In this document: positions 23,876-61,498 of the stretch, piece after piece
How positions within the stretch are numbered: position 1 is the first letter of the stretch
How the letters are laid out: each line of letters begins with the position of its first letter
Assembly: GCF_053078305.1 (NCBI RefSeq)
Contig: NZ_CP166879.1
Strand: one strand, 5' to 3'
DNA: 64,000 bases
Program-made: the position numbers and the translations under genes
Notes under the pieces: generated by a model
Databases searched by the model: none
What the model was told of the DNA's origin: nothing
What the model saw: the letters and a program-made list of their open reading frames with translations, nothing else

Positions 23876-23951
23876 GCCCGGATAGCTCAGTCGGTAGAGC
23901 AGGGGATTGAAAATCCCCGTGTCGGTGGTTCGATTCCGCCTCCGGGCACCA
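23876..23951 (+). tRNA. pheU: tRNA-Phe (anticodon GAA), pheU-type locus
   Basis: 76 nt: GCCCGGA acceptor stem pairing with TCCGGGC, D-arm AGCTCAGTCGGTAGAGC, anticodon loop ATTGAAAAT (GAA), T-loop TTCGATT, 3' CCA; followed directly by an integrase gene. Confidence 0.95.
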
Positions 23952-24146
23952 TATACCAGAACACGCTGGTTAAGGGATGAGATCCTTGACGGGCGGTTAA
24001 TACAGGATGCGGCATCAAAGGGTCTCCGTTTGTGTAAGTTGTGGTTACACTGATTGAGTTCGGTATCGTATCCTCAAACAGGGTCTCTTTTGCAGAGACG
24101 CCCTGTTCTCGTTAACACTGTATGCTTACATTGCTGATTCAGCCTG

Positions 24147-25184
24147 TCAAGATTTATTCCCCCCTTTGCAAATCTTGCTCACTGTGCGCTCATCTGTATA
24201 CAAACTCAGGGCATCTTCCAGTGTCTGCGCTGCAGACTCCATACAGACATCAACATACCCCATGGTCGTTGTAAGACTCCTGTGTCCCAGTATGGATTTG
24301 ACCAGATGTAAATTACGTTCAGGATATTTCATCAGTCTGGTTGCCAGCGTATGTCTGAAACGATGTGGTGAAACAGGAAAACCACATTCTCGCGAAAGTC
24401 GCCGGAAAAATGAACGTACGGTCTGATGCGCCCGAACGGGACAGTACTGATATCTGTCGGCAGAGATCGGCTCACTGAAACGACAGACGTCAAAAAGATA
24501 GTCATCATCACCTGCCCCGCACTGACGGGCCCGCTCCAGCAGTTTTTCCATCGATACCTTCAGGGGAGCCACCAGAGGAACGCCCCATTCCCTGTGAGTT
24601 TTACTTCCCTCCAGCTTAAGATCAATTATGCTTTCATCCGGACAGACATCCCTCACACGGATATGCTTCAGTTGATTAAAGCGCATTCCGGTATAACGCA
24701 GAACATCCAGAACTGTCAGCCAGTACCAGGCAGGGTATATAGCATTGCGTCGACGACTATTCACCATGTTCTGCTCTTCCGCTTCTGCAAACCTCTGCAC
24801 AACCAGGTAAACCCTGAGCATCTGATTGTCACTCAGTGTCTTTTTCTTTTTTTCAGTACTCGCAACTGATGCTTCCACCAACGGGTTTTCTGTCTGAGGC
24901 AGCAGTTTCATCTTGATCCCGAATCCCATAATTGCCCGCAAGTGGGCCACCTTGTTATTCCAGGTCACCTCCCTGCGCTTCTGCTCTTTCAGGACATAAC
25001 GCCGGTATCGCTGAACATCACGGACAGTCACCTCCCCCGGCAAAATATCACCGATAAATTCCCTGAATACCCTGACAACTTTGCAGTAGCTCCACTCTGT
25101 ATCCGGCCGAAGATTCTTTGAAAAAAAGTACTCTTCCAGCAGTTGTTCCCAGGTGATTTTTGTGACGGAATCGTCATTCTGCAT
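24147..25184 (-). CDS. Tyrosine-type site-specific integrase (island integrase)
   Basis: Start MQNDDSVTKITWEQLL (ATG 25184); catalytic signatures TGMRFNQL, HRFRHTLATRL and LGHRSLTTTMGYV; adjacent to the tRNA 3' end. Confidence 0.85.
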   Translation of the reverse strand: MQNDDSVTKITWEQLLEEYFFSKNLRPDTEWSYCKVVRVFREFIGDILPGEVTVRDVQRYRRYVLKEQKRREVTWNNKVAHLRAIMGFGIKMKLLPQTENPLVEASVASTEKKKKTLSDNQMLRVYLVVQRFAEAEEQNMVNSRRRNAIYPAWYWLTVLDVLRYTGMRFNQLKHIRVRDVCPDESIIDLKLEGSKTHREWGVPLVAPLKVSMEKLLERARQCGAGDDDYLFDVCRFSEPISADRYQYCPVRAHQTVRSFFRRLSRECGFPVSPHRFRHTLATRLMKYPERNLHLVKSILGHRSLTTTMGYVDVCMESAAQTLEDALSLYTDERTVSKICKGGNKS

Positions 25185-25251
25185 TATATATTCCCCTTGT
25201 TTACTGTGCTCCCGCACTCTCCGGTCAAATTCTGCACATCATCGCCTTTAC

Positions 25252-26739
25252 TCACCCGAAAACAATAAGCGGGCTGTCTCCGGGAACCGTAATATTCCCG
25301 TACAGAAACCTGCCCTTAACCAGATATCCCGAAACCATTTTGTAACGTCCGGAATGTTCTGCGTCACTATAAAGACGGGCCTGAAAAAAACGCTCTCCTG
25401 AACGTACCTTATGGATACCTGCCCGTTCAAAGAGCGACTGAACATAACGACGATCCTGCCCGGAACCACTCTCCTTCAGAAAACGATAAAAAATCCCCGG
25501 GGCACACAGAAAAACATATCCGGAAACAACATGAACATTTGAATCAACGCTGTTAACCGAAAGTGAACCCTCCCTCAGCCCCTCTTTTAACCATCTGATA
25601 AATTCACTCTCTACCCTGCTATCCTCTGTCAGGGAAAACTCTGCCGTTTTTTCCACTGTTTCCGGGATACGGTTTCCCTGATTTTCTGTTACACATCCGC
25701 TCTCTTCCGGTAACTCAATACCGCTTTCTTTATCCGGCGGCACGCCTGACGCTATCTGCCCTCCCTCATCCGACAAATCAGCAGCAGAAAACAGCGTAAG
25801 GAGCATTCCGGTATCAGCATCAGTTTCGTTCCCCTCATCCACCTCCTGTTCCGCTGTCCGGCCCTCATTTTCGGCATCCTCCACTGGCGACTGTACAACC
25901 GGCAACGGCTGAATGACGCTTTCTGCTGAAATTGCTGCTGACTGCAGCAGTACCGGAACAACCTCAGCCACCGGAACTTCGGCCACATCTCCTGCAGCGA
26001 GGGGACTCACGACTTCCTCCATAGCTTCCTGTAATACTGTACGTATCAGTGCCATTTCAGGATGCTGATGCCAGACTGCTCCGGCAAGATTCTGTAATGC
26101 CCCCGGGACAGTGGCAAGCCAGGCTCCCGCCTCTCCGGGCAGCAGTTGTCCCGCCATCAGGGCTGCCAGTTGCCGTCCCTCCGTTCCCTGGCAGGGCATC
26201 TTCCTGAACCGGAACCGGTATACGCCCTCAGGTACAGATATCCCCGGCTGCCAGCATCTGCCGTCGGCCTGTTCGCCTTCCAGTTCCGCCAGCAACGGCA
26301 GGTGATAAAACAGAGCCGACCAGAACACCACCATGTTCCACACACTCCCCTGCGCGGCCTGCTCTTCTGCTGTCGCTCCCGGTGGAAACATTCTGCCTCT
26401 GGCCAGCCGGACAGCATACGTCGTGAACTGCAGGGTCAGGTCACCAAAACCACCGGTGTAACCCCAGCGACCTTCTGCTGTGGCCGGCAGATTCTGACTG
26501 ACAGACAACAACTGATGCACAGGATCAAGACAAAGGCGCTGATACATATCCACCGGCATGGAACTGTTTTCCCATAACTGTTTCAGACACCTTTTCCTGA
26601 ACGGTGTGGATACCAGTACATCAGCCGGCAATGGTGTAAAATACCCCTCCGGCACCGTTTCCCCGGGAATATCCGTCCGGACATCAGAACATTCTGTCTT
26701 CACAGGAAATAACCTTTTCAGGCGTTCAAGCATGCCCAT
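25252..26739 (-). CDS. Hypothetical protein (495 aa) with an acidic low-complexity central region; operon partner of the helicase
   Basis: Long ORF whose start overlaps the stop of the upstream helicase gene by 14 nt; no motif I can assign. Confidence 0.5.
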   Translation of the reverse strand: MGMLERLKRLFPVKTECSDVRTDIPGETVPEGYFTPLPADVLVSTPFRKRCLKQLWENSSMPVDMYQRLCLDPVHQLLSVSQNLPATAEGRWGYTGGFGDLTLQFTTYAVRLARGRMFPPGATAEEQAAQGSVWNMVVFWSALFYHLPLLAELEGEQADGRCWQPGISVPEGVYRFRFRKMPCQGTEGRQLAALMAGQLLPGEAGAWLATVPGALQNLAGAVWHQHPEMALIRTVLQEAMEEVVSPLAAGDVAEVPVAEVVPVLLQSAAISAESVIQPLPVVQSPVEDAENEGRTAEQEVDEGNETDADTGMLLTLFSAADLSDEGGQIASGVPPDKESGIELPEESGCVTENQGNRIPETVEKTAEFSLTEDSRVESEFIRWLKEGLREGSLSVNSVDSNVHVVSGYVFLCAPGIFYRFLKESGSGQDRRYVQSLFERAGIHKVRSGERFFQARLYSDAEHSGRYKMVSGYLVKGRFLYGNITVPGDSPLIVFG

Positions 26740-28216
26740 TCTCCTGAACCCGACCTGATGTGTCGTACCCGGTCCCCCGCAGACCTTCAGTTTTCTGCTG
26801 TTCTTCTGCCAGTTGGTGCATCAGGTCATTCAGTACCAGCGTCCTGAGGGCCCGGGTGACAGCCACATATAACAGACAGGTTTCATCATGACGCTCGGCC
26901 TCCGTCATCAGCGGAACCGTGATATCCTGGAAATCCTCATCCAGCATTACAACCGGCCACTCCAGCCCCTTGCTCCGGTGTGCCGTTGACACCGTGATAT
27001 CTGCATCCTGCTCATTCGTTACCGTATACTGCCGGAGAAGTTCCAGTTTTTTCGGTAACGGAAAACACAACTCCAGAAGCCGAAGGGACTGATTCATCTC
27101 CACATCCTTCGTGGATTTTGCAATATATTTATATTCTTCAAAATTCCTGTAGTCCCGGCGCAGCCTGTCTGAATGCATCCGTTCCGGCATATCAACCTGG
27201 AACCAGTAGAGATCCTCAAGTTCCCCGGTCCTGTAACCTTCGATTCCCCCCACCCAGTAAACCTTTTGCCCTTTCATTGCCGCCATCAGCGCAGTACCAA
27301 TCACACCCGCGACAGTACGACTGAGTACCGTGTAATGCCCCTGCAGATGTTCACGCGCATGGCATTTCAGCAATACCTCATCATCACCACCACAACCTTT
27401 CACCTCTCGTGTTTCACCTTCACGCTGCAGAAGCAGATTTGCCATACGAGCCACCGCCGGACCAAAACGGAAACTCTGTGTCAGCCACAACCGGTCCGCA
27501 TTCTTCAGTGCAGGATGGGAAAGCGCATTATTCGCACCCCGAAAGCGGTAAATCTGTTGATAACAATCTCCAACAAGGACCACCCGACACTTCTGCCCCA
27601 GAACCAGAGCAGTGGTCACCGGATTCGCATCCTGCGCCTCATCAAACAGGATGGTGTCCCATCGGTGAGACAGGTCTGCACCGGACAACTGGAAGAGTTT
27701 CAGATAAGTATCGTGCGTCACCGGGAACGTCCCCCCGGGGTTGCTCATTTCGTTCCAGAGCAACTGCACCGCCCGAAGCGCATCTGCTGGCGGAACACCC
27801 CGCATCTCATCCTTATCCGGCAGGTGATGCAGGCCCGGTACCGCATCAGCAGAACAGATAAAATGATTCAGCCCCGTCCCTGCCACCCGTGCCAGAGCCC
27901 AGTATCGTGTATTCAGCTTTCTCGCCACATCAGTAATACGTAATCCCGGAACCAGCCGATGACGGTAGTGTCTTCCAACCCGGGCATACGCCAGCTGATG
28001 TGACGTTCTGCATTCCACGTTAAAGGGAAATTTACGCTCTGCCTCATCACGTATTGCCCGGTTATAGGCAAGATAGAGCATACGGCTGTCCGGACTGGCC
28101 CGGGCAAACTGCACCAGCGTACTCGTCTTCCCTGTGCCGGAAAACGCATTCACAACCAGTTGCTGCCCCTGCCAGTTAATAATGGCGTACTGTTCATCTG
28201 TGGGATTAAAAGACAT
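26726..28216 (-). CDS. UvrD/Rep-like superfamily 1 DNA helicase
   Basis: Start MSFNPTDEQYAIINWQ (ATG 28216); Walker A GTGKTS, motif II FDEAQD, C-terminal VAVTRA-type motif. Confidence 0.8.
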   Translation of the reverse strand: MSFNPTDEQYAIINWQGQQLVVNAFSGTGKTSTLVQFARASPDSRMLYLAYNRAIRDEAERKFPFNVECRTSHQLAYARVGRHYRHRLVPGLRITDVARKLNTRYWALARVAGTGLNHFICSADAVPGLHHLPDKDEMRGVPPADALRAVQLLWNEMSNPGGTFPVTHDTYLKLFQLSGADLSHRWDTILFDEAQDANPVTTALVLGQKCRVVLVGDCYQQIYRFRGANNALSHPALKNADRLWLTQSFRFGPAVARMANLLLQREGETREVKGCGGDDEVLLKCHAREHLQGHYTVLSRTVAGVIGTALMAAMKGQKVYWVGGIEGYRTGELEDLYWFQVDMPERMHSDRLRRDYRNFEEYKYIAKSTKDVEMNQSLRLLELCFPLPKKLELLRQYTVTNEQDADITVSTAHRSKGLEWPVVMLDEDFQDITVPLMTEAERHDETCLLYVAVTRALRTLVLNDLMHQLAEEQQKTEGLRGTGYDTSGRVQENGHA

Positions 28217-28447
28217 GTATTCTCTTCTCCGGAAAAACATTTCCGTAATCTGATGCATCAGGGGTATGCCCACCACAAATAACTCTGTACAGCAACAGAA
28301 AAATTTCCCTGGTCATATGATGAATTAATCATCGCCATCACACCGGATGCTTCTCATCCTGTCCTCAGAAAGACAGGTGGTCTCCTGTCTGCCGCGCTTA
28401 TCCAGGATACCGGGACCTGAAAGGTCATAATCTGGCAGGAAAAAATA

Positions 28448-30124
28448 ATGTCCGAAGTAAAAAAACACGTTTCTTATTCATTAACAGTTGCAGCTATGCT
28501 GTCAGCCGCCATCGTCTGTCAGACAGCACATGCTGATATCAACACACCGAACATCACCGGAGAAAAAAACAATACAACAACACGATTCTCCGGAAATATT
28601 TACGGCAGTGAAAATACTGTCACATCAGAGTCAAACAGTCTGGTTGTGGGTAACAGTAATTCCGTGGAGGGAGGGTATAACAACATTGTTATTGGTAATT
28701 CCTCCACGGTCAAAGCTTCCGGTTTGATCAGAAAAGTGGGCGAAGATATTGTGCTGGATGGTTACAGCGTCAGCCTCGGTAATGCCACCAGAATTAACGG
28801 TGATTCATCTGTTGCCATAGGTCTGACATCGTCCGTAACCGGGAACGACTCCGTGGCACTGGGCAGTCATTCCAGTGCTAACGGAAACAATATCGTATCC
28901 GTCGGCTCTGACACACTGAAACGCCGCATCACAAATCTGGCACAGGGGAAAGATGACCATGATGCGGTAAATCTGATGCAGATGACCAGTGCTGTTAACC
29001 GGGAAGCTGGAGAAAGAATAAAATCAACAAACAACCTGCAGAATCAGCTTAATACCCTCTCTGGTCAGGTCATAACTGAAACCAGGGCCCGAACAGAAGG
29101 TGATGCAGCAGCGCTGGCTGCAGCCAGAGCCCACAGCGATGAAAACGACAAAAGAACACTGGTCAGTGCGAATACCTATGCTGACCAGAAAGAAACCGCC
29201 ATCAATAACCGTACTGACGGATTACTGACGACCGAACGCCAGGCACGCACCGCAGGCGATACTGCAACTCTGGCTGCTGCCAGAACGCACAGCGATGAAA
29301 ACAACAAAAGAACACTGATCAGTGCGAATACCTATGCTGACCAGAAAGAAACCGCCATCAATAACCGTACTGACGGATTACTGGCTACAGAACGCCAGGC
29401 ACGCACCGCAGGCGATACTGCAACTCTGGCTGCTGCCAGAACGCACAGCGATGAAAACAACAAAAGAACACTGGTCAGTGCGAATACTTATGCTGACCAG
29501 AAAGAAACCGACATCAATAACCGTACTGACGGATTACTGGCTACAGAACGCCAGGCACGCACCGCAGGCGATACTGCAACTCTGGCTGCTGCCAGAACGC
29601 ACAGCGATGAAAACAACAAAAGAACACTGATCAGTGCGAATACCTATGCTGACCAGAAAGAAACCGCCATCAATAACCGTACTGACGGATTACTGACGAC
29701 CGAACGCCAGGCACGCATCGCAGGTGATGCCGCAACTCTGGCAACAGCAGCGGCATACAGTGACGCCGGGGATTCACTGACACTGAAACAGGCAACAGCC
29801 TACAGCGATATCAGTACCCGCCGGGCACTGTCAGAGGCCAATCGTTATACCGACAACAAATTCAGAAACCTGAGCAATAAAATTGAACGGGCAGAAAAAA
29901 GACTTAATGCAGGCATCGCCGGAGTGACAGCAATATCCTCCATCCCCTATGTGGCTGAAAATTCTTTTTCATACGGGATCGGCGTGGGTAACTATCAGAA
30001 CGCTAATGCTGTGGCCGCAGGCATTCAGTATAAAACATCACGTAATACCAATATACGCCTCAACATCTCCTGGGACTCATCTCATAACACCGCGATTGGT
30101 GCAGGGGTTGCCGGCGGCTGGTAA
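28448..30124 (+). CDS. Trimeric autotransporter adhesin (YadA-like; Eib/Saa-like size class)
   Basis: Signal peptide (AAMLSAAIVCQTAHA); head repeats (NSVEGGYNNIVIGNSS, SVAIGLTSSVTGNDSVALG); coiled-coil stalk with tandem repeats; C-terminal YadA anchor ending NISWDSSHNTAIGAGVAGGW. Confidence 0.8.
   Translation: MSEVKKHVSYSLTVAAMLSAAIVCQTAHADINTPNITGEKNNTTTRFSGNIYGSENTVTSESNSLVVGNSNSVEGGYNNIVIGNSSTVKASGLIRKVGEDIVLDGYSVSLGNATRINGDSSVAIGLTSSVTGNDSVALGSHSSANGNNIVSVGSDTLKRRITNLAQGKDDHDAVNLMQMTSAVNREAGERIKSTNNLQNQLNTLSGQVITETRARTEGDAAALAAARAHSDENDKRTLVSANTYADQKETAINNRTDGLLTTERQARTAGDTATLAAARTHSDENNKRTLISANTYADQKETAINNRTDGLLATERQARTAGDTATLAAARTHSDENNKRTLVSANTYADQKETDINNRTDGLLATERQARTAGDTATLAAARTHSDENNKRTLISANTYADQKETAINNRTDGLLTTERQARIAGDAATLATAAAYSDAGDSLTLKQATAYSDISTRRALSEANRYTDNKFRNLSNKIERAEKRLNAGIAGVTAISSIPYVAENSFSYGIGVGNYQNANAVAAGIQYKTSRNTNIRLNISWDSSHNTAIGAGVAGGW
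29132..29755 (+). repeat. Four tandem copies of a 156-bp (52-codon) in-frame repeat inside the adhesin stalk
   Basis: Unit starts at 29132, 29288, 29444 and 29600 (CACAGCGATGAAAAC...), near-identical; encodes HSDENNKRTL(V/I)SANTYADQKETAINNRTDGLL(T/A)TERQARTAGDTATLAAART. Confidence 0.9.
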
Positions 30125-30363: not shown

Positions 30364-30852
30364 TTATTTTATTGTGGATAATGATGCCAATGGCATGAAT
30401 AAAGTTCTTCCGGACTCCGGGAACGCCATAAAGCCATAATGTTTGTAAAATGCGACTGCCGTGTCATCTTTTGCATCAACAATAAGCGCATATGCTGCAA
30501 TTTCAGATGTGTATGCACGATATAGCGCATCAGCTAAAAGTGCTCCCCCAAGCCCCGTTCCTTTTGATGACAGACTTACTGCCAGTCGTCCCATACGAAT
30601 AGCCGGAATAGTGGGATATCGCGGAAGCTTTTTTCTCAAATGCTCAGGTAAGTCAGTTAATAATATACTGGCCGCTGATAACGTATAGTATCCGATGATA
30701 TGATGATCGTTATCTACAGCGACAAAACAGGCCGCGATGCGTCGTCGAATATCCTGTGTGACATGCTCTTTTATGTAACGGTCCAGAGCATCAGAGCCAC
30801 ATAAAAATGAGGTTCTGTCATATGTGCTGTTAAATGGTGTCAGTTGAAACAT
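30364..30852 (-). CDS. GNAT-family acetyltransferase toxin (TacT/KacT/ItaT-like type II toxin)
   Basis: 162 aa with GNAT acetyl-CoA motif GTGLGGALLADAL; immediately downstream of, and co-oriented with, a DUF1778-type antitoxin gene (5-bp gap). Confidence 0.75.
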   Translation of the reverse strand: MFQLTPFNSTYDRTSFLCGSDALDRYIKEHVTQDIRRRIAACFVAVDNDHHIIGYYTLSAASILLTDLPEHLRKKLPRYPTIPAIRMGRLAVSLSSKGTGLGGALLADALYRAYTSEIAAYALIVDAKDDTAVAFYKHYGFMAFPESGRTLFMPLASLSTIK

Positions 30853-30857
30853 TATAT

Positions 30858-31139
30858 TTATTTTGTGTACAGCATATTATTACGGCGTTTAAAGGCCCGT
30901 TTAAGCGCATCATTCGGCTCTGTTGGTGACAGTAATGCCTGAGCAAAAATTTCCTGATCTGTCCGGGACAGTCGGATTATATCGGTTTGTTCGATAGCGC
31001 GTTGGGCCGCATCCTGAACGGCAGCAATGATAAAATCGGTCATAGTGCGCCCCTGGATTTCTGCAGCGCGCTTCAGCATGGCATGTAGTTCTGTGCTGAT
31101 CCTTGCTTCCAGTCGGGCAGTTTGTGTTGCAGATGGCAT
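30858..31139 (-). CDS. DUF1778-type ribbon-helix-helix antitoxin (TacA/KacA-like)
   Basis: 93 aa, RLEARISTELHAMLKRAAEIQGRTMTDFIIAAV (RHH fold), upstream partner of the GNAT gene. Confidence 0.75.
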   Translation of the reverse strand: MPSATQTARLEARISTELHAMLKRAAEIQGRTMTDFIIAAVQDAAQRAIEQTDIIRLSRTDQEIFAQALLSPTEPNDALKRAFKRRNNMLYTK

Positions 31140-31184: not shown

Positions 31185-31556
31185 GCAAATTACACTCTGA
31201 CACCGGGACGGCAGACAGACATTCTGCCTGAAAAGAAAAATCAGATTCAGACAAAACTATCCGGGGGATGTTAACGCCACGATCTTTGACCATTGCATAC
31301 AGATAAAAGCTCAGATTATTTACCAGCAGTGACATCCGGAGTACACCGGGATTTTATCTGTGAGTGAACATACCCGGGCAAAAAAATCCCCCGAATTCAG
31401 GGGGGTGTCAAAGAGGAATTATGTATATTGGTTATTATAATGAGCACGCCTCCGGTATTCCGCGACGAATGTTCACGTGGTGGCATGAACGGCCCGGAAA
31501 CGTGCTCTTCTGATTTTTAACGTAAATTTACACTAAAGGCAACTCTGATACTGCCT

Positions 31557-32132
31557 TCACCGGATATAGGAGAAGGCCGTCGTGACCCGCTTCACTCCGC
31601 TCACCCTACTGGCAACATCTGCTGCCGCTCGCCCTTCCTGCTCTGTAACCAGGCCCAGTAAAAAGACTTCGCTGTTTTCTGTCACCACCTTGACACTGGA
31701 TGATTTGACACGGGCACTTGTGAGTAACTGAGAACGAATTTTTGTCGTAAGCCAGGCATCACCTGCCATTATGACCGGACTGACGGGTGTCCCCTGCCGG
31801 ATTTCATTATAGACCTCCTGAACACCATCGACACCGAGTGCTATCTGACGGGCACGGGCAGATAATTCACGGCCCGGAGACTGACCGATCAGCAGCACGC
31901 GTCCCTGATATGCAATCTCACTGATACGTGCTTCTTTTCTGATTTGTTCATCTTTTGAAAGTGCACTGCTGACCCTCAGCTCCAGCACTTCATCATCCAC
32001 CTGCGCTCCGACACTGCGTGGGTCGGTTGCTGCCTTTGTCCCGACAGCAGCTGTACCCACCACAGCGGCAGCCACGCACCCCTGTAACAATAAGGCTGAA
32101 GTAAGGACAACAGCAGAATATAATAAACGCAT
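31557..32132 (-). CDS. BON-domain outer-membrane lipoprotein, DolP/YraP paralog
   Basis: 191 aa; lipobox LLLQGC then VAAAVVGTAAVGTKAATDPRSVG and two BON-like segments ending VSGVKRVTTAFSYIR; closely resembles core DolP but sits in the island. Confidence 0.8.
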   Translation of the reverse strand: MRLLYSAVVLTSALLLQGCVAAAVVGTAAVGTKAATDPRSVGAQVDDEVLELRVSSALSKDEQIRKEARISEIAYQGRVLLIGQSPGRELSARARQIALGVDGVQEVYNEIRQGTPVSPVIMAGDAWLTTKIRSQLLTSARVKSSSVKVVTENSEVFLLGLVTEQEGRAAADVASRVSGVKRVTTAFSYIR

Positions 32133-32438
32133 ATCTCCCCCGGAATTGTTTTGATTTTTACTTCATATTCCCGGAATTTATCGTACAAAAAGTTTACCTT
32201 CAGTGAAACAAAACAAGCTACAGACTGTTATTATCCTCCGGCACAGCCGGAAACAGCGGATGCGTTACGTGGCATATCTGTATCTGTCAGACGGAAAGAT
32301 TTATATCGGATATGGATGTACTGGAATTTAATATTGATCATGTTTTTTGCACGAAAACTTTGATACCGTCGTAAAGATTCTTTTTTTAACTATCTGGTTC
32401 GCTGAACAGGATCTCCTTTTCGTTATACACAGGCTGAA

Positions 32439-32467
32439 AGGCACCGTGGAGCCCCCGGTGCCTTTTT
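32439..32467. terminator. Hairpin with T tract downstream of the ydcH-like gene (possibly bidirectional)
   Basis: GGCACCG-tggagcccc-CGGTGCC followed by TTTTTC on the plus strand. Confidence 0.35.
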
Positions 32468-32509: not shown

Positions 32510-32737
32510 TTACCGTTCGCCCTTTTCTGACTCATCTTCAAGGATTTTCTGGATTTCTCTTTTGATCTCAAGTTTTTCAAGCTTCAGCCTGACCACTTTC
32601 GTCGAATACGCTGAACCAAATTCATCTTCAATTCTTTTTATTTCGTGATCAAGTTTATTATGCTTTTCAAATAAAGAATCAAAGCGTTTATGATTTCCTT
32701 TCAATGCTGAAATCAGTTCTCTGTACTCCGGGAACAT
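32510..32737 (-). CDS. YdcH-family (DUF465) small protein
   Basis: 75 aa, MFPEYRELISALKGNHKRFDSLFEKHNKLDHEIKRIEDE, resembles E. coli YdcH. Confidence 0.7.
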   Translation of the reverse strand: MFPEYRELISALKGNHKRFDSLFEKHNKLDHEIKRIEDEFGSAYSTKVVRLKLEKLEIKREIQKILEDESEKGER

Positions 32738-33846
32738 TGTTTTTATCTCCTTTCATCAACACTGTAACAATACATATAAACATTAATATTATTAAAGATT
32801 CTCACCATCAATATTCGCAGTGAATAATGCAGCATCTCATATTCACATCCTGCAGAGAAAACCCCTCCGGAGAGGGGTGAGTGTAGCGTAATGGAGTGTT
32901 ATGTAGCATGGTGCCGGGTGCCTCCCGGTGAGTTCAGTATCAGCACCTGAACCCGCACAGATAAGGGATGTGACCAAACACCTACGATACTGATATGCCC
33001 CGCCGCTCAGGGGGATTCACCATGCAGTATTTTTTTAACAAATATCCCGTAAGACCGACAATAATCCACTGACTGAACTGTGAGGTATTTAACATTTACA
33101 GATGACTGACTGTGGTGATCAGAGGTATTACAGTCATCCCCCTGTGGCTGCAGTCCGACCATACCATAACCAGCCATACGTCTTACCCGGAAAGCAAATG
33201 GAGCTTTTTGCCATAAACAACACTCTCCGGCTTCAACAAATGGAGCAGAGAATATCTTCAGAAAGTAACAATCAGTTAAAAACAGATCTTTTTTGTATTC
33301 CGTAAATTTTTCAGAAGAGAAAAAGAATTAATTGTCGCCAACGCCTTCAACAGATCGCATCATCAACGAATGATAACAACCTGAAGGATACCGCGATGGA
33401 GTTGACTGTAGACCTGCTAAAAAACCTTAACAACATCAGACAAAATGCTACTATATATGTTCACGCATACCACTATACTGATGATGAAAAATGCGTTATG
33501 GTGCCACGGATATCTTTACCATCACTGAAATTAACTCCGTTGCAATCAGAAATAATTATTCTGACATCTTCTTAATGGAGTCAATTATATAAGGCACGAC
33601 GGGTATGTTCAGGGATATGAAGAAAAAAATGTGGCAACTTTCACAATACAGGAGGAGGGACACCATCGTTTCAAAGCAGACTTATCACAAAATGGGGAAA
33701 GTGATATAGCCAGCAATGTACTAAATCACTGGCTACATCGTATACATAAAACAGATATCATTGTTCTGTCTGTTGTTCTTACAGAATAAATCCTGTTACC
33801 TCCTGAATGTTACAAGGTTTTATATTTATCCTATGAGCATACGTAC

Positions 33847-34893: not shown

Positions 34894-35118
34894 ATGACAC
34901 GCAACGCAACGCAACGCAACGCAACGCAACGCAACGCAACGCAACGCAACGCAACGCAACGCAACGCAACGCAACGCAACGCAACGCAACGCAACGCAAC
35001 GCAACAATATGCTCGCCTGAACTCTCTCCGTCAAGTACCTCTACCTCCGTGCTTTCTGGAGGTACTGTATGAATATACGCAACAATCATCTACCGGGAAC
35101 AGAAACTCTTTTTTCTGA
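34894..35118 (+). CDS. Candidate leader ORF containing the pentanucleotide tract and overlapping the mod start
   Basis: ATG 34894 preceded by GAGG (34885-34888); reads MT(RNATQ)x7 through the repeat and ends at 35118, 50 nt beyond the mod ATG; coding status unproven. Confidence 0.35.
   Translation: MTRNATQRNATQRNATQRNATQRNATQRNATQRNATQQYARLNSLRQVPLPPCFLEVLYEYTQQSSTGNRNSFF
34899..35005 (+). repeat. Perfect pentanucleotide simple-sequence repeat (GCAAC)21
   Basis: 21 uninterrupted GCAAC units at 34901-35005 (tract with partial unit starts 34899), ending 63 bp upstream of the mod ATG. Confidence 0.97.
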
Positions 35119-37105
35119 AACTGAAACTGCGAACAGTAAACAACTTGCTGTTTTGAAAACTAACTTTCCACAGTGTTTCGATAAAAACGGAGCTTTCATT
35201 CAGGAAAAGCTGCTTGAGATCATCAGAGCATCAAATGTTGAAATCTCTAAAGAGTCATACTGCTTAAACTGGCTTGGCAAATCCTATGCTCGCCTGCTGG
35301 CTAACCTACCACCAACGACATTGCTGTCAGAAGATAAAGACCATAACCGACGTGAAGAGAACAAGAACAGTCAAAATCTGTTAATCAAAGGGGATAACCT
35401 TGAGGTATTAAAGCATATGGTTAATGCTTATTCTGAAAAGGTTAAAATGATTTATATCGATCCGCCATATAACACGGGTTCTGATGGGTTCGCCTATAAT
35501 GATGATCGCAAATTTACACCAGAACAGCTTTCTGATCTGGCGGGTATCGATCTTGATGAGGCTAAACGTATACTTGAATTTACCACGAATGGTTCAAGCA
35601 GCCATAGCGCATGGTTAACGTTCATTTATCCTCGTTTATATATTGCTCGTGAGCTTCTACGTGAAGATGGTGTGATATTTATTTCGATTGACGAAAATGA
35701 ATTAAATCAACTTAAAACTATTTGTGATGAAATTTTTGGCGAAGCAAATTTCATAGAAAATATTGTATGGAATAAACGTATCCCTAAAAATGATAAGGGT
35801 ATTGGTAATATCCATGAGTACATCCTTGCTTATGCGAAGAATAACGAAATAAGTAAAGAATTTTTAATGCGGAAAGATGGTATTGATGATGTATATCAGT
35901 TTATTGAAAAGTTAAAAAAGGAAAAGGTGCCATTAGATAAAGCAGAGCAGCAACTCAAAAAATTCTACAGCTCCAACGGATATGATCGTGGAATTACTCT
36001 TTACAACGGTTTGAACGAGGATTATAGGCCATGGGGTAAAATTAATATGAGTTGGCCTAATGCAGATTCATTTGGACCCACGTATGAAGTATTGCACCCT
36101 TTGACTAATAACCCTGTCAAAATCCCAGACAGAGGCTGGCGTTGGAAAGAAGGCACTTTTAATCATATTGCAAAAAGAATAGATGGAAAGTATGCAGATA
36201 TCAAAAAACTACATGATGGTAGCGTTATTTGTGGTGGAATTTGGTTTGCCCGTACAGAAAAAACCCAACCCAGTTCGGTTAAATTTTTAGATGAAGTTGA
36301 AGAGTTTTTACTAAGATCAATTATTTCAACTAAAAGTGATGGTGGTGTTGAGGTTGAAAATCTTTTTGGTGGGAAAGGATATTTCTCCTACCCGAAGCCA
36401 ACAAGTTTAATAAAAACACTATTTGGTTCAGTAAGAACCGAAGATAAAGACATTTATCTTGACTTTTTTGCTGGCTCTGGAACTACAGCTCATGGTATTC
36501 TGGAGTTAAATATTGAAGACGGCAGGAAAAGAAACTTCATCTGTGTTCAATTAGATGAAGAAACAGATAAAAAGAAACAAGCCTATAAAGAAGGGTATAA
36601 ATCCATCTTCAATATAACAAAAGACAGAATTATTAAGGCAGGAAAAAAGCTGAAAAAAGATAATCCTAATTATAATGGAGATTTGGGATTTAAAATATTT
36701 GAAACAGTTCATGATTTTCGAGCGAAAGATGAGTCTGAACTTACGCTTTCTAATCTTAGTTTCTTTGACGATGCTGTATTGACACCAGAGCAGTATGACA
36801 CTCTATTGACGACATGGTGCGTGTATGATGGCAGCTTGCTAACAACACCAATTGAAGATATTGACCTTAATGGCTACAAAGCACACTTGTGCGATGGTCG
36901 GCTATATCTAATTGCGCCTAATTTCACAAGTGAGGCTTTGAAAGCTTTACTTCAAAAGCTGGATGCAGACAAAGACTTTGCCCCTAACAAAGTTGTATTT
37001 TATGGCAGCAACTTCGAAAGTGCGAAACAGATGGAACTCAATGAAGCACTAAAAAGTTATGCTAATAAAAAATCTATTGATTTAGATTTGGTGGTAAGGA
37101 ACTAA
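35069..37105 (+). CDS. mod: Type III restriction-modification methyltransferase Mod (N6-adenine)
   Basis: 678 aa; GGAGG Shine-Dalgarno at 35058-35062; motif IV IYIDPPYNTG, motif I FFAGSGTTAHG; followed 2 bp later by res. Confidence 0.9.
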   Translation: MNIRNNHLPGTETLFSETETANSKQLAVLKTNFPQCFDKNGAFIQEKLLEIIRASNVEISKESYCLNWLGKSYARLLANLPPTTLLSEDKDHNRREENKNSQNLLIKGDNLEVLKHMVNAYSEKVKMIYIDPPYNTGSDGFAYNDDRKFTPEQLSDLAGIDLDEAKRILEFTTNGSSSHSAWLTFIYPRLYIARELLREDGVIFISIDENELNQLKTICDEIFGEANFIENIVWNKRIPKNDKGIGNIHEYILAYAKNNEISKEFLMRKDGIDDVYQFIEKLKKEKVPLDKAEQQLKKFYSSNGYDRGITLYNGLNEDYRPWGKINMSWPNADSFGPTYEVLHPLTNNPVKIPDRGWRWKEGTFNHIAKRIDGKYADIKKLHDGSVICGGIWFARTEKTQPSSVKFLDEVEEFLLRSIISTKSDGGVEVENLFGGKGYFSYPKPTSLIKTLFGSVRTEDKDIYLDFFAGSGTTAHGILELNIEDGRKRNFICVQLDEETDKKKQAYKEGYKSIFNITKDRIIKAGKKLKKDNPNYNGDLGFKIFETVHDFRAKDESELTLSNLSFFDDAVLTPEQYDTLLTTWCVYDGSLLTTPIEDIDLNGYKAHLCDGRLYLIAPNFTSEALKALLQKLDADKDFAPNKVVFYGSNFESAKQMELNEALKSYANKKSIDLDLVVRN

Positions 37106-37107
37106 TC

Positions 37108-40020
37108 ATGTCTAAAGGGTTCACATTCGAAAAAAATTTACCTCATCAAAAGGCTGGCGTTGATTCGGTAATGAATGTCTTTGTATCCGCCATACCTCAT
37201 CAGACGGATCATGTTGCAATTCGCCTGTTAGCTAATCCAGAACTGAATCTATCTGAACAACAATACTACAACAACATAAAAAATGTTCAGGAGTTCAATG
37301 GTATTGAGCACTCAAAAGATAATTACGATGCTAAAAGCAACGTAATTGATGTTTCTATGGAGACAGGTACAGGTAAAACTTATACTTACACCAAAACAAT
37401 TTTTGACCTGAACAAATCATTTGGTATTAACAAATTTATCATCATTGTTCCTACCCTATCGATCAAAGCCGGAACCGTTAACTTTTTAAAAAGCGATGCT
37501 ATAAAAGAACACTTTCGAGATGATTACGAGCGTGAACTAAAGACTTACGTTGTTGAAAGTCAGAAAAGTTCGGGTAAAAATACAAAATCGTATATGCCTC
37601 AAGCTATCCATGATTTTGTTGAAGCAAGTAATTTCAATAAGAAATATATACACATTCTTGTGATCAACTCAGGGATGATTAACTCTAAGTCTTTAACTGA
37701 CACTTATGATGTTGGCTTGCTTGATAATCAGTTTGATACCCCATTTTCTGCACTTAGTGCGATAAAACCATTCATTATCATTGATGAGCCTCATAAATTT
37801 CCTACTGGTAAAAAGACATGGGAACATATTCAAAAATTTAATGCCCAATATATCATCCGCTATGGCGCAACCTTTAGTGAAGGCTATAAGAACTTAGTTT
37901 ATCGTCTTACAGCCGTAGATGCCTTCAATGAAGATCTTGTTAAAGGTATTGATGCATACATTGAGGATATAGTTGGTGATGGTAATGCCAACCTCAAGTT
38001 GGTCAAATCTGACGGAAAAGAAGCTACATTTGAACTGAACGAAAATAATAATAAAAAAATTTTTAAGTTAGCCAAAGGTGAATCACTATCTAAGACGCAT
38101 AGTGCGATCCATGATTTAACTCTTGATGCTTTAAATAAGAATACAGCAGTGTTGAGTAATGGTATTGAGCTAAAAATTGGTAGTTCGATAAACCCCTATT
38201 CTTACGATCAGACACTTGCTGATAACATGATGCGTAAAGCTGTCAAAGAACACTTTAAGTTAGAAAAAGAGTATCTGACACAAAGGCCACGCATAAAACC
38301 TCTTACTCTTTTCTTCATTGATGACATTGAAGGCTATCGTGATGGTAATGATATTGCAGGAAGCCTGAAAACTAAGTTCGAAGAATACGTTTTGGCAGAA
38401 GCAAATGAACTGTTAAAAACAGAGAAAGATGAGTTTTACAGAAACTACCTTGAAAAAACTGTTAAGGATATATCTTCTGTTCATGGTGGTTATTTTTCAA
38501 AAGATAATAGTGATAAAGATGATAAAATTGAGCAGGAAATCAACGAAATCCTTCATGATAAAGAGCTTCTATTGTCTTTAGAAAATCCTCGCCGTTTCAT
38601 TTTCTCTAAATGGACGTTGCGTGAGGGATGGGATAACCCAAATGTCTTTCAGATTTGTAAGCTCCGTTCGAGCGGTAGCACCACATCTAAACTTCAGGAG
38701 GTAGGGCGTGGTTTACGTCTTCCAGTGAATGAATACATGTGCCGTGTGAAAAACCGCGATTTTACTCTCAACTATTATGTTGATTTTACGGAAAAAGATT
38801 TTGTTGATTCTCTTGTAAAAGAGGTTAATGATAGTTCTTTCAAAGAAACTGTTCCAGGTAAGTTTACTCAAGAACTTAAGGATAAAATCTTATCTCAGTA
38901 TCCTGAGCTTTCATCCAGAACACTCATGAATGAGATCTTTGATGCTGAAATTATTGATGATAATGAAAACTTCAAAGATTCCGATGCCTATAGCCGTTTA
39001 AAAGCAAAATATCCGGCTGCATTCCCTACCGGGGTGAAACCAACAAAAATAAAAAAAGCCACGGATGGAAAAAAGCGTACTAAAATGCGTATTGGTAAGT
39101 TCAGTGAGTTGAAAGAACTATGGGATTTGATCAATCAAAAAGTAGTAATTGAGTATAAAATAAATAGTGAAAATGAATTCTTATCCATTTTCAAATCATT
39201 CATGATTGAAGAAACAGATAGATTTACTAAATCAGGTGTTCATACTCGCATTGATAGAATTTATATTCATAATGATACGGCGATGTCGAAAAGTATCGTC
39301 AGTGACGATGATAACTTTGCTAAACTAAACACAATGAGCTATCGGGAATTTCTTGATAACTTATCACAAACTATTTTTGCTAAACACGATACCTTACATA
39401 AGGTTTTTTGTGATATAAAAGACACTATCAATATCACCGACTACCTGAACATTCAGACAATCAGAAAGATTAAATCTGGGTTTAGCAAGTATTTGTTGAA
39501 CAATTCATTTAACAAATTCAGCCTTGGATATAATGTAATTTCAGGCTCAATTCATCCTACAAAATTCACTAATGCAGACGGTAATCACCTGCATGAGGTA
39601 TTATCAGGTGATCTTGGAGTATTACAGGATAATACAAAAGCCCCCCTAGACTCTTATCTTTTTGAAGAAGTTTTTTATGATTCAGAGCTTGAAAGACTCA
39701 ATATAACAGACGGAGAGATCCACTCTGTTGCTGTTTTTACAAAGATACCGAAAAACTCAATTAAAATTCCAGTGGCAGGTGGATACACATATTCTCCTGA
39801 CTTTGCTTATGTTGTAAAAACAACAAAGGGTGACTACCTTAACTTTATTATTGAAACAAAAAATGTCGAAGGTAAAGAAAGTTTACGTAAAGAAGAACTG
39901 GATAAAATAAAGCATGCACAAAAACTTTTCGAACAGGTAAGTAAATCTGTAAAAGTAACTTTTATAACTCAATTCTCAGGTGACAGAATCCATGATCTGA
40001 TAAAAAATGTGATTCAGTAA
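37108..40020 (+). CDS. res: Type III restriction enzyme Res subunit (SF2 helicase-like ATPase/nuclease)
   Basis: 970 aa; Walker A TGTGKTYT, DEAH-like IIIDEPHKF; tightly coupled to mod. Confidence 0.9.
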   Translation: MSKGFTFEKNLPHQKAGVDSVMNVFVSAIPHQTDHVAIRLLANPELNLSEQQYYNNIKNVQEFNGIEHSKDNYDAKSNVIDVSMETGTGKTYTYTKTIFDLNKSFGINKFIIIVPTLSIKAGTVNFLKSDAIKEHFRDDYERELKTYVVESQKSSGKNTKSYMPQAIHDFVEASNFNKKYIHILVINSGMINSKSLTDTYDVGLLDNQFDTPFSALSAIKPFIIIDEPHKFPTGKKTWEHIQKFNAQYIIRYGATFSEGYKNLVYRLTAVDAFNEDLVKGIDAYIEDIVGDGNANLKLVKSDGKEATFELNENNNKKIFKLAKGESLSKTHSAIHDLTLDALNKNTAVLSNGIELKIGSSINPYSYDQTLADNMMRKAVKEHFKLEKEYLTQRPRIKPLTLFFIDDIEGYRDGNDIAGSLKTKFEEYVLAEANELLKTEKDEFYRNYLEKTVKDISSVHGGYFSKDNSDKDDKIEQEINEILHDKELLLSLENPRRFIFSKWTLREGWDNPNVFQICKLRSSGSTTSKLQEVGRGLRLPVNEYMCRVKNRDFTLNYYVDFTEKDFVDSLVKEVNDSSFKETVPGKFTQELKDKILSQYPELSSRTLMNEIFDAEIIDDNENFKDSDAYSRLKAKYPAAFPTGVKPTKIKKATDGKKRTKMRIGKFSELKELWDLINQKVVIEYKINSENEFLSIFKSFMIEETDRFTKSGVHTRIDRIYIHNDTAMSKSIVSDDDNFAKLNTMSYREFLDNLSQTIFAKHDTLHKVFCDIKDTINITDYLNIQTIRKIKSGFSKYLLNNSFNKFSLGYNVISGSIHPTKFTNADGNHLHEVLSGDLGVLQDNTKAPLDSYLFEEVFYDSELERLNITDGEIHSVAVFTKIPKNSIKIPVAGGYTYSPDFAYVVKTTKGDYLNFIIETKNVEGKESLRKEELDKIKHAQKLFEQVSKSVKVTFITQFSGDRIHDLIKNVIQ

Positions 40021-52643: not shown

Positions 52644-53601
52644 GTCTTCATCCTCATCAGCAGCTCTTCAGTGGATAACATCCACAGTTACACCTGCATT
52701 TACGCGCAACAAAAACACCAGATGAAGATTTTATTCATTCAGCTCCGCTAAAAATTAATCTTGCTGTGGAATATCGGGAAAACAGGAAGTTACGTTAAAA
52801 GCCGAAGGAAAAACTCACAATCCCTTCTTCAATCAGCCTCTGAAAATCGGCTTTTCAGCATGTCTTCCCCCATTGTTCGTATACCCTGTTCGATGGATTA
52901 TTATTGATCCATATGATCGCTTCACGTAAACACGATTCTGGCTCCACACCATTCTGGACGCGATTGTTACCAAAAAAGACAACCATCACAAGACGTCACA
53001 GACGGTGCGTGCGCTTACTCCTGTATATCTGGCGCAACAGAATCTACCAGTGTAAACTCTCTATGCTTTTGCGCAGAAGCAGTGGGCCTGGGTTCGCTTA
53101 TGTCCTGCATCTACAAGCGAATGACTGACCAGAGACTCCCATATCTGGTCAGTCGCCCATTTTTATTTTCCCTATACACTCAGACTACAATAGCCGTAAC
53201 AAACAGCATACCCCCAGTCATAGTGGCCCCTTTATCTTCTTATGGCTTGTCTGTGGTACTGGAGATAGAGCAACTGTGGGAGTACTGTTATGGCCCCCGG
53301 TAAGAAAAACTCTTGCTTAATGTACAGCAGAACTGTTCCCAGAAAGAAGCCTGTGCATATTTTCATAGAAGGAGATCACCCATAACGGCGTTTTTCACGG
53401 TAATACACGCCAGGTAAAGAATGCTGGATTATCAATCAAAGCTCCGCACAGGAAGCGCTTATGCCGTAGAGCGCCCTCTGGAGAAAAGTGCTACTTCTTG
53501 TCGATTCAGACTAGTTCAGGAAATTATACGAAAATATTACCTGAATGAGCTAAATGTTATTTACCTTCCTTTCTGTTCATTGTAAATTTTTTCTTGCTAA
53601 C

Positions 53602-53620
53602 GCAAATCATTATCATTACG
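53602..53620. promoter_or_regulatory. Candidate Fur box upstream of the TonB-dependent receptor gene
   Basis: GCAAATCATTATCATTACG: three NAT(A/T)AT-like hexamers (AATCAT TATCAT TACGAT) matching the Fur consensus GATAATGATAATCATTATC core, 21 bp upstream of the start. Confidence 0.5.
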
Positions 53621-53640
53621 ATTTTAGAAAAGGGAAATTT

Positions 53641-55725: not shown

Positions 55726-56362
55726 ACCAGTATAGTAATCAGTAACGTCAGCTTCCAGGTTGTAATGCTTTTAATTTTGATAAAAATAAACTTAATAAAT
55801 TACATTTGTTAAATATTGATAATTTTAATTTGGTTTTATTACTCCAGTTATACTCACACTCTATCTTTACACAATTCATCACCATTACACCTCCATAGCC
55901 TGTTGATTTAAAAGATTTAATTTCCTGTGAAACAATCAGGCCTGTATGAACCTGATTATACCACAGAATCTTTTAAGTTATTTAAATTTAACTCTCGGGC
56001 TTTTCTGTCAGTAAAATCAGAAAAATTGCAGGATTTCGTTTTTTTTGCTGCGAAGTGAAATGTATCTCATTTTTACTGCCTTCGCCAGTGCGTCAGGCAA
56101 TGGCAGGTAGTGTACCTGCATTCTGCTGTAACGCGTAATGTCGGGTAGTTTACTTAAACTTAATATGTTTTATGTTTGCATTATTATAAATCACTTTATT
56201 GCCTTTTGTCTGCTTTTTAATGGTTCCCGTTTTGTTCACTTCTGGCTTTATAAAAAATGGATGCTGAAGAAATGAAGGTAGTCCACCTTACATAATATTC
56301 ATGCATGATTTTTATGCTATTCCGACTGAGTGGAAGAAAATAAAGGAGAAAAGAGGGTATAT

Positions 56363-60694: not shown

Positions 60695-60718
60695 CAGGGA
60701 AAAGCAAGGAGAAATGTA

Positions 60719-61498
60719 ATGTTATTTAGTCGAATGATGATGACGGGTGTGCTGTCCCTGATGCTTGCAGGATGTGGAAATCTGAGTCATGTCACGGATG
60801 AAGGAACGACGGAAGAAGTGGTATGGCCTTCTCCGGAGAAGGTGATGTTTAATCATGACGGAACACAGAAAGGTTCGTGGCCACTGCCAGAAAAGTTACG
60901 TCAGATAAAGGCGGGTATGAATAAGGACCAGATTTATCAGCTGGCGGGGAGACCACACTTTGCTGAAGGGATGTCTGGTGTAAGGGAATGGGATTACCTG
61001 TTCAACTTTACCGGACCGGAGGGGGATTATACCTGCCAGTACAAGATACTGTTTGACCGGAACATGGATGCCCGCTCTTTCTACTGGAAGCCGGAAAACT
61101 GTCTGCCGGAGGCAGAGACAGCAGAATACAGGGAGTCAGTCCCCGGTGATATATTATTTGATTTTGATTCATGGACTCTGACAGAGAGGGGGCGTGATGC
61201 GCTTTCCCGTGTGGCAGAGAAGTTTCAGGCGGGTCATGTTGTCGGGGTGAAGATAGAAGGATTTACGGACCATCTTGGCGGGCAGGCGTATAACCGGCTC
61301 CTGTCAGAGAAACGGGCGGAATCAGTCAGGGGGTGGTTTATTGCCCGGGGATTCAGGGCTGAAAGGATACATGCAACGGGCCGTGGATATGATGCACCAG
61401 TGGTGTTCTGCCCGGATGTGGAGGGCGAAGCACTGAAGGAATGTCTGCGCCCCAACCGCAGGGTTGAAATAACCGGGGAAACATCAGTGACTGATTAA
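60719..61498 (+). CDS. OmpA-C-domain lipoprotein (peptidoglycan-binding), co-oriented 24 bp downstream of the adhesin
   Basis: Lipobox LMLAGC; C-terminal OmpA-like domain (ILFDFDSWTL, FTDHLGGQAYNRLLSEKRAESV, RPNRRVEI). Confidence 0.8.
   Translation: MLFSRMMMTGVLSLMLAGCGNLSHVTDEGTTEEVVWPSPEKVMFNHDGTQKGSWPLPEKLRQIKAGMNKDQIYQLAGRPHFAEGMSGVREWDYLFNFTGPEGDYTCQYKILFDRNMDARSFYWKPENCLPEAETAEYRESVPGDILFDFDSWTLTERGRDALSRVAEKFQAGHVVGVKIEGFTDHLGGQAYNRLLSEKRAESVRGWFIARGFRAERIHATGRGYDAPVVFCPDVEGEALKECLRPNRRVEITGETSVTD

Follow-up and report, generated by a model that had tools for sequence, protein, structure and literature searches.

A DolP-family lipoprotein gene travelling as cargo of an ICEEc2/pKLC102-type integrative conjugative element at tRNA-Phe in Escherichia coli

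Does a DolP-like gene inside a horizontally acquired island give its host a second, working DolP, and if so, what would such a copy do? The question is raised by a stretch of 64,000 nucleotides of Escherichia coli DNA (contig NZ_CP166879.1 of assembly GCF_053078305.1; the whole stretch is referred to as the window), which encodes on its minus strand a relative of the envelope lipoprotein DolP (YraP). The usual view of DolP is of a core gene present in one copy, which guards the outer membrane and supports BamA under stress; it has also been proposed as a drug and vaccine target. An original prediction, made from the sequence alone, took the gene for an island-borne paralog that could support the island's autotransporter adhesins or confer envelope-stress tolerance. 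According to the analysis, the gene is cargo of an integrative conjugative element (ICE) of the ICEEc2/pKLC102 type at tRNA-Phe; that it encodes a functioning DolP-family protein and would add DolP activity appears probable without being assured. The gene adds one more member to an established family, in an uncommon, mobile setting, and reveals neither a new type of system nor a new mechanism; automatic RefSeq annotation already names the island-type genes dolP, while no publication on an ICE-borne, island-borne or otherwise mobile DolP was found in the literature.

31557..32132, minus strand: island-type dolP, 191-amino-acid outer-membrane lipoprotein precursor with two BON domains (open reading frame, Pfam, NF008247, identity to K-12 and AlphaFold)

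The translation of the minus-strand open reading frame (191 amino acids) begins MRLLYSAVVLTSALLLQGC, and the signal peptide ends in the lipobox LLQGC, in which Cys19 is followed by V20-A21 with no Asp at +2, identical to K-12 DolP. The product is predicted to be a lipoprotein, with signal peptide, lipobox Cys and outer-membrane sorting signal all in place. Pfam recognises two BON domains, at residues 46-113 (E 2e-11) and 125-189 (E 1e-15), and the DolP equivalog model NF008247 of NCBIfam scores 295.2 bits against a cut-off of 184, aligning residues 6-190 with profile positions 7-191 of 192 (185/192 positions), whereas the OsmY model falls far short of its cut-off (63.6 bits, cut-off 174); matches in the NCBIfam scan were limited to DolP, OsmY and a lipoprotein signal model. 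The alignment with K-12 DolP is gap-free over 191 amino acids at 74% identity (BLASTP), so that the length, lipobox and dual-BON layout originally read from the sequence are confirmed by reading frame, Pfam, equivalog model and alignment alike. In an AlphaFold model built from a 35-sequence alignment, both BON domains (residues 47-189) have predicted local distance difference test values above 90, and low confidence is restricted to the signal peptide and the known flexible linker. The model includes the extended, 20-residue BON2 alpha-1 helix (residues 119-138), and its closest solved structure is 7A2D, E. coli DolP (E 1e-22), followed by BonA, OsmY and gonococcal DolP. Residues reported as essential or lipid-contacting in DolP comprise Y75, G83, G160, W127, L137, T130 and S134 (PMC7806268); the island protein keeps W127, T130, K131, R133, S134, Q135 and L137 of the BON2 alpha-1 helix and Y75, G83, G160 and L161 between the domains, with the conservative changes V82I, T150V and T188S. 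With every sequence hallmark present, the gene is, on its sequence, a real member of the DolP family, and it is probably functional.

Whether it is also an extra gene depends on what the rest of the genome holds. The window's own genome is visible over 64 kb, and the count of core copies comes from complete-genome relatives. A sensitive nucleotide search placed dolP in 5424 of 5426 complete E. coli genomes, the best match in 5398 of the 5424 being the annotated dolP, with merely ~70% nucleotide identity to the window gene; in K-12 this core gene lies 3' of lpoA-yraN-diaA. An island-type copy with 92-99% nucleotide identity occurs in 26/5426 genomes; in each of these the sensitive search exceeds the strict one by one match or more (at least two matches each), and the additional match is read as the core gene. 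In some of the 26 there are two or three matches of island type, one of those in L001 (E. coli OkiPb01714) being a 270-bp 3' fragment. The expectation of a separate chromosomal dolP is thus borne out in the relatives. These counts oppose the notion that the island gene is the sole dolP of its genome, a core gene that has changed place, as do two further observations: the first 23.8 kb of the window are the groEL-aspA-dcuA-cutA-dsbD-dicD region of E. coli, 99.4% identical to complete genomes, so that the flanks place the window in the groEL-dsbD-pheU region of the E. coli chromosome, and synonymous sites have reached saturation between island and core genes. A relocated sole dolP is excluded for all practical purposes, with next to no probability left to it, and is already refuted for the relatives. 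The description as a paralog holds in so far as the copy is additional and not relocated; xenolog is the more accurate term, the island clade being no recent duplicate of the E. coli gene.

The element itself begins at the tRNA gene that follows the core region, and its integration genes and first cargo are laid out as follows.

23876..28276: ICE integration end, consisting of tRNA-Phe (pheU; 23876-23951, plus strand), tyrosine integrase (24147-25217, minus), PFGI-1-class relaxase (25252-26739, minus) and UvrD-like helicase (26726-28276, minus) (ARAGORN, TIGR03760 and the gene order of L001)
28448..30124, plus strand: YadA-like trimeric autotransporter adhesin, 558 amino acids, convergent with dolP (match to the YadA anchor model NF033478; tandem repeats)
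30364..31139, minus strand: TacT-like GNAT toxin (30364-30852) and TacA-family antitoxin (30858-31139), in this variant inserted between adhesin and dolP genes (as annotated by RefSeq in L001, 98% identical)
32510..32737, minus strand: DUF465/YdcH-like gene, 75 amino acids, the usual upstream neighbour of island dolP (NF008505, 94 bits, cut-off 91)
32852..33054, minus strand: STnc100-family small RNA gene, full length, 5' of DUF465 (Rfam RF02076, 138.7 bits, gathering score 47, model positions 1-206 of 206)

The relaxase belongs to the TraI_2/PFGI-1 class (TIGR03760, 210.5 bits, cut-off 161.4; NCBIfam), and the relative L001, 98-99% identical, has the integration genes in equal order, followed by ArdC, DUF1281, TraG-N and TIGR03756-family conjugation genes; the 64-kb window stops short of the carrier's far end. 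Because tRNA-Phe, integrase, relaxase and helicase are joined in L001 by conjugation genes, the carrier is identified from its gene content as an ICEEc2/pKLC102-type ICE at tRNA-Phe (pheU), and pheU and pheV are known hot spots of ICEEc2 (PMC11537424). The gene had been placed inside a horizontally acquired island, between a toxin-antitoxin pair and a YdcH-like gene; this was correct, and the island can now be named. Counted from the helicase, the cargo order is YadA-like adhesin, TacT/TacA pair, dolP, DUF465 and STnc100 small RNA. Related ICEs in E. coli, Salmonella and Yersinia have no dolP in this slot, on which ground dolP was rejected as part of the ICE backbone. By comparison of these elements, the slot beside the helicase is a hot spot for cargo, in which one ICE sub-lineage carries dolP-DUF465. 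Within this lineage dolP has apparently been carried for long, since the divergence of an 83%-identical dolP variant matches that of the backbone proteins of its ICE from those of the window (TraI 81%, UvrD 89%, methyltransferase 89%, integrase 91%). On Salmonella enterica contigs L100 and L101, a related ICE at pheU has the pgaABCD biofilm-polysaccharide operon in the helicase-side slot, which repeatedly holds cell-surface functions.

No donor species emerged from a search of 5.8 billion proteins or from a scan of one genome per species over 100,044 species. In the former, island-type sequences (at least 81% identity) were exclusively labelled E. coli or unlabelled, the rest of the matches being core DolP of enterobacteria at 65-75% identity; in the latter no island-type copy appeared, only core-type genes at 75% identity or less. 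Nor was a true copy found on plasmids, where hits were megabase-sized 'plasmid' records or chromosome fragments together with a 36%-identical Legionella BON protein, or in phages, where hits were chromosomal fragments and IMG/VR gave no match; a plasmid or phage location was rejected, as the hits trace to chromosomal or megabase records. One island variant is indexed in 183 blocks of public assemblies. In a neighbour-joining tree, seven island variants form one clade (100% bootstrap) that is as diverse internally (down to 78% identity) as the core Enterobacteriaceae DolPs taken as a whole, and that stands beside the whole core Enterobacteriaceae clade (80-88% bootstrap) and not within Escherichia. 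This position may be a long-branch effect, because the lineage evolves three times faster: Tajima relative-rate tests assign 24-31 unique amino-acid changes to the island lineage and 6-11 to E. coli DolP (p = 0.0001-0.011, and up to 0.04 against Klebsiella DolP). Among island variants, synonymous divergence (dS) reaches ~1.1 with a ratio of nonsynonymous to synonymous divergence (dN/dS) of 0.10-0.17, compared with 0.02-0.08 for core genes; G+C at third codon positions is 43-50% in island dolP and 58-71% in core genes. The reading frame is intact in five divergent variants and in every full-length copy examined. With its separate clade, saturated dS, and these rate and dN/dS results, island dolP is best described from its sequence as an old xenolog, faster-evolving than the core gene yet clearly under purifying selection.

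Purifying selection bears directly on the suggestion of a neutral passenger, in which a captured copy, serving no selected role, would be in slow decay. Such a passenger might be expected to look in part as island dolP does, being rare (26/5426 genomes), represented in places by partial copies such as the 270-bp fragment in L001, separated from DUF465 in some genomes by an insertion sequence (IS) element of the IS3 family (L092, L096), and lost from degraded elements. Decay is nevertheless difficult to reconcile with a dN/dS of 0.10-0.17 maintained over dS up to ~1.1, with intact frames in all full-length copies, with a conserved Shine-Dalgarno site and upstream block, and with the retention of all functionally critical residues, and the passenger explanation is very improbable.

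The sequence around the gene holds several candidate expression signals.

31388..31403, minus strand: intrinsic-terminator-like hairpin and T-run, ~150 nucleotides past the dolP stop (consensus scan; putative terminator)
32133..32250, minus strand: upstream block including the Shine-Dalgarno site, kept across ICE variants; presumed dolP promoter/regulatory region (alignment)
32440..32462, minus strand: GC-rich hairpin GGCACCG...CGGTGCC followed by TTT, just 3' of the DUF465 stop; candidate weak terminator separating DUF465 from dolP (read from the sequence)

A Shine-Dalgarno-like GGGGGAG lies immediately 5' of the dolP ATG, and the alignment that defined the upstream block took in the window, L003, L004, L006, L087 and L089. 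The hairpin at 32440..32462 went uncalled by the terminator scan because of its short T-run. Together, the hairpin after the DUF465 stop and the conserved upstream block suggest a separate promoter for island dolP. Compared with the core gene, the signals for expression appear to differ, there being neither a diaA context nor a recognisable sigma-E promoter, and for this reason the gene would add activity under conditions set by the element.

How such activity might act can be sketched from what is known of DolP. The island protein would be exported by Sec, lipidated at Cys19 and sorted by Lol to the inner face of the outer membrane, where its BON2 helix, with W127, T130, K131, R133, S134, Q135 and L137 kept, would bind anionic phospholipid. 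DolP associates with BamA, and surplus DolP gives a dose-dependent fitness benefit when BamA over-accumulates, whereas envelope stress titrates DolP away from mid-cell and septum (PMC8081527); homologues as remote as that of Neisseria complement an E. coli dolP deletion (PMC7806268). The island copy would, like DolP, stabilise the outer membrane and BamA function in a dose-dependent manner, and expression set by the element could provide added DolP at times when adhesins, a TonB-dependent receptor and, in members of the ICE family, a pilus secretin from the element burden the outer membrane. By analogy with the core protein, then, island dolP most likely supplies extra or differently regulated DolP activity. 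The remodelled first turns of its lipid-binding helix, more hydrophobic than those of core DolP, may alter how or where it engages the membrane.

Several observations weigh against this reading. Island dolP is dispensable, being confined to the 26 complete genomes and lost from some degraded elements. Its dN/dS is 2-4 times the core value and its lineage is ~3 times faster than core DolP, both of which would also fit relaxed constraint or shifted function. A consensus scan of the 377-bp spacer 5' of the gene found neither a sigma-70 promoter nor a sigma-E site of the form GAACTT-N14-18-TCNNA; a GAACTT/AAACTT-like motif is kept between variants, its spacing to any TC-containing -10 being 1-2 nucleotides too short. 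Identical function is not guaranteed either: in a comparison of 28 core with 7 island sequences, 17 positions share no residue between the clades. Five of these (119, 120, 122, 126 and 128) fall in the first turns of the BON2 alpha-1 helix, which in a nuclear magnetic resonance study of DolP inserts into phosphatidylglycerol micelles (PMC7806268). Within the island clade G120 is replaced by V, A or L, A122 by M or I and T126 by A, and S123 by A in most copies; G120 is a lipid-intercalating residue and is V in the window copy. At positions 48-49, core G/S-T is island E-V, adjoining V52, the residue of DolP that cross-links to BamA and OmpA (PMC8081527).

From these residues a case can be made that the function has shifted, the altered lipid-binding helix and BON1 surface giving the protein another localisation, for example off the septum, and an element-specific purpose connected with the pilus secretin, the mating-pair machinery or the modulation of host DolP processes. 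The clade-specific substitutions are concentrated at 119-128, and the mean Kyte-Doolittle hydropathy of 117-128 is 1.10 in island copies (0.75-1.25) and 0.42 in the 28 core copies (0.07-0.67) with no overlap; the changes at 48-49 beside the BamA/OmpA cross-link site, the faster evolution of the lineage and the type IV pilus secretin encoded by this ICE family point the same way. On the Wimley-White interfacial scale, however, 117-128 does not differ between the clades, the helix keeps W127 and its C-terminal half as in the core, related ICEs with equal transfer machinery lack dolP, which is therefore not needed for transfer, and purifying selection alone accounts for the data. A shifted function is accordingly held to be improbable; the changed residues give no sign that function has been lost, and a modified membrane or partner interface is possible.

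The other proposed role concerned the adhesins. Island DolP could be a dedicated helper of the neighbouring YadA-like proteins, assisting their β-barrel assembly machinery (BAM)-dependent assembly or anchoring, much as AtaA is served by TpgA or SadA by SadB. All 26 complete island-type genomes have a convergent YadA-like gene or remnant within ~1.5 kb of the dolP 3' end: 19/26 hold the block DUF465-dolP-YadA(425 amino acids), and the rest are window-like, with the 558-amino-acid adhesin and the toxin-antitoxin pair in between, or keep an adhesin remnant, as in strain A33, where a YadA C-terminal remnant lies 220 bp from dolP. The three-gene block survives even in an IS-rich island remnant that is not an ICE, and DolP interacts with BamA, the assembler of autotransporters (PMC8081527). 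The 26 genomes are, however, one shallow clade (92-99% nucleotide identity) and not independent cases. In the 83%-identical ICE variant, DUF465-dolP is arranged as in the window and the interval from dolP to the helicase holds small unrelated open reading frames with no trace of an adhesin, and the 87% variant has no adhesin within 3.6 kb. Conversely, four Shiga-toxin-producing E. coli (STEC) genomes keep the 558-amino-acid adhesin intact after IS66-associated loss of dolP, and five genomes have a gene sharing ~700 bp with the 425-amino-acid adhesin gene and no island dolP. The slot contains 0, 1 or 2 adhesin genes while dolP-DUF465 stays constant, L001 differing in arrangement from the window by a 2.3-kb insert that carries an adhesin and is bordered by a 559-bp duplication. 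The two genes are convergent with separate terminators and so not co-transcribed, and the large adhesin of the island has its own TpgA-like partner. Support for the adhesin link is weak and non-independent, and there is evidence against an obligate one; a role in adhesin display was not established, and a dedicated helper is unlikely. Envelope-stress tolerance, the other half of the original prediction, would fit known DolP biology better.

The neighbours of dolP show further variation. The window adhesin has four tandem 156-nucleotide (52-amino-acid) stalk repeats at 29114-29742, and alleles of 558, 506 and 402 amino acids in related genomes differ by multiples of 52, so that repeat number is strain-variable. 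The TacT/TacA pair is absent from the L089-type variant. DUF465 adjoins dolP in the window, L001, L003-L005, L089-L096 and L106, the ICE thereby carrying diverged copies of two E. coli core genes, ydcH-like and dolP-like, side by side; it is absent from all 80 core dolP loci examined, and joint capture from a chromosome with the two genes as neighbours was rejected (0/80). A defence function for either protein was likewise rejected, PADLOC and PHROG giving no matches for DolP or DUF465. Two degraded element types were seen: in that of L105 (NZ_CP027586.1), four STEC genomes keep integrase-relaxase-helicase-adhesin at pheU, with DUF465-dolP gone beside IS66, and in that of L106 (NZ_CP027312.1), DUF465-dolP-YadA(425 amino acids) stands in an IS-rich island without ICE integration genes. 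The large adhesin, an EmaA/Ata-like trimeric autotransporter of 1454 amino acids, is followed at once by a 259-amino-acid OmpA-domain TpgA-like protein (60719-61498; both genes 56330-61498, plus strand); the TpgA model scores 119 bits against the latter, below its 350-bit cut-off, and the layout resembles AtaA-TpgA of Acinetobacter.

The window also holds cargo apart from these genes. The STnc100 gene has a terminator-like site at 32878-32861 (consensus scan). STnc100 relatives (72-80% identity) occur several per genome in ~2800 E. coli genomes, usually in prophages. In Stx phages, STnc100 has been connected with sialate-esterase genes by a 2026 preprint; in certain relatives of this ICE, the position 5' of DUF465 that STnc100 takes in the window is on the side of a gene for a sialate O-acetylesterase. 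A type III restriction-modification system (35069-40020, GC 34-39%) comprises mod (35069-37105) and res (37108-40020). On the plus strand, 64 bp 5' of mod, the interval 34899-35005 is a perfect pentanucleotide repeat, (ACGCA) x 21.4, which has the look of a switch for phase variation of the methyltransferase. Further ICE cargo is found at 53554-55689 on the plus strand, where a TonB-dependent siderophore receptor of the IreA family is encoded (1514 bits, cut-off 1197).

A more far-reaching form of the proposal would make island DolP a specialised mobile factor of outer-membrane biogenesis, uncoupled from septal recruitment by its more hydrophobic lipid-binding helix and altered BON1 surface, serving BamA and the outer membrane cell-wide and co-transferred with adhesin genes to offset the assembly stress that these cause. 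This seems decidedly unlikely; if true, a mobile element would bring its own 'envelope insurance' along with its surface cargo. Under the favoured reading of added DolP activity, a back-up DolP in some strains could mask dolP phenotypes or blunt DolP-directed interventions, and the carriers are E. coli associated with cattle and humans, among which Shiga-toxin producers are numerous. Island DolP also provides structure-function studies with a naturally varied lipid-binding helix, and its gene offers a simple test case for whether mobile elements bring factors that make up for the load their surface proteins place on the envelope.

Among known systems, the carrier shares with the ICEEc2/pKLC102-PAGI-2 family of ICEs at pheU/pheV its insertion at tRNA-Phe, the order integrase, TraI_2 (PFGI-1-class) relaxase and UvrD-like helicase, the genes for DUF1281, ArdC, N6-methylase and PilI and, in L001, TIGR03756-type conjugation genes. 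The ICEEc2-like variant commonest in E. coli differs in its helicase (merely 79% identical) and in a cargo slot without a BON/dolP or DUF465 gene, as do the relatives in Salmonella (helicase 71%, neither gene in the slot) and Yersinia (helicase 64%, other genes in the slot and neither of these). With TpgA of Acinetobacter AtaA and SadB of Salmonella SadA, partner proteins of trimeric autotransporters, the likeness is that island DolP is a small envelope lipoprotein whose gene stands beside a trimeric autotransporter gene in one island. TpgA, however, has an OmpA-like domain and no sequence relationship to island DolP, and SadB is a coiled-coil inner-membrane lipoprotein unrelated to DolP; in contrast to this type of partner, island dolP is convergent with the adhesin gene and not co-transcribed with it, and the adhesin neighbour is not kept across the deeper island-DolP lineages. 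OsmY and BonA have the dual-BON fold in common with island DolP (BonA 6V4V, TM-score 0.83, normalised by target), whereas OsmY lacks the lipobox and W127 (PMC7806268) and the OsmY model does not accept the island protein. From E. coli DolP itself (YraP, 7A2D) the island copy differs in being ICE-encoded where the core copy lies 3' of diaA, in its presence in ~0.5% of complete E. coli genomes, and at positions 119-128, where the core has LG(E/T)AS(N/S)DTWI and the island P-V-I-M-A-G-D-A-W-L; it also lacks the lpoA-yraN-diaA-dolP context and a recognisable sigma-E promoter, this context and sigma-E-dependent expression being features of the core orthologue and not of the protein family. E. coli DolP is otherwise the closest counterpart, with equal length, the same lipobox and +2/+3 residues, nearly identical linker residues 19-47, two BON domains, an extended BON2 alpha-1 helix with W127, 74% identity and a DolP equivalog model whose cut-off the island protein passes.

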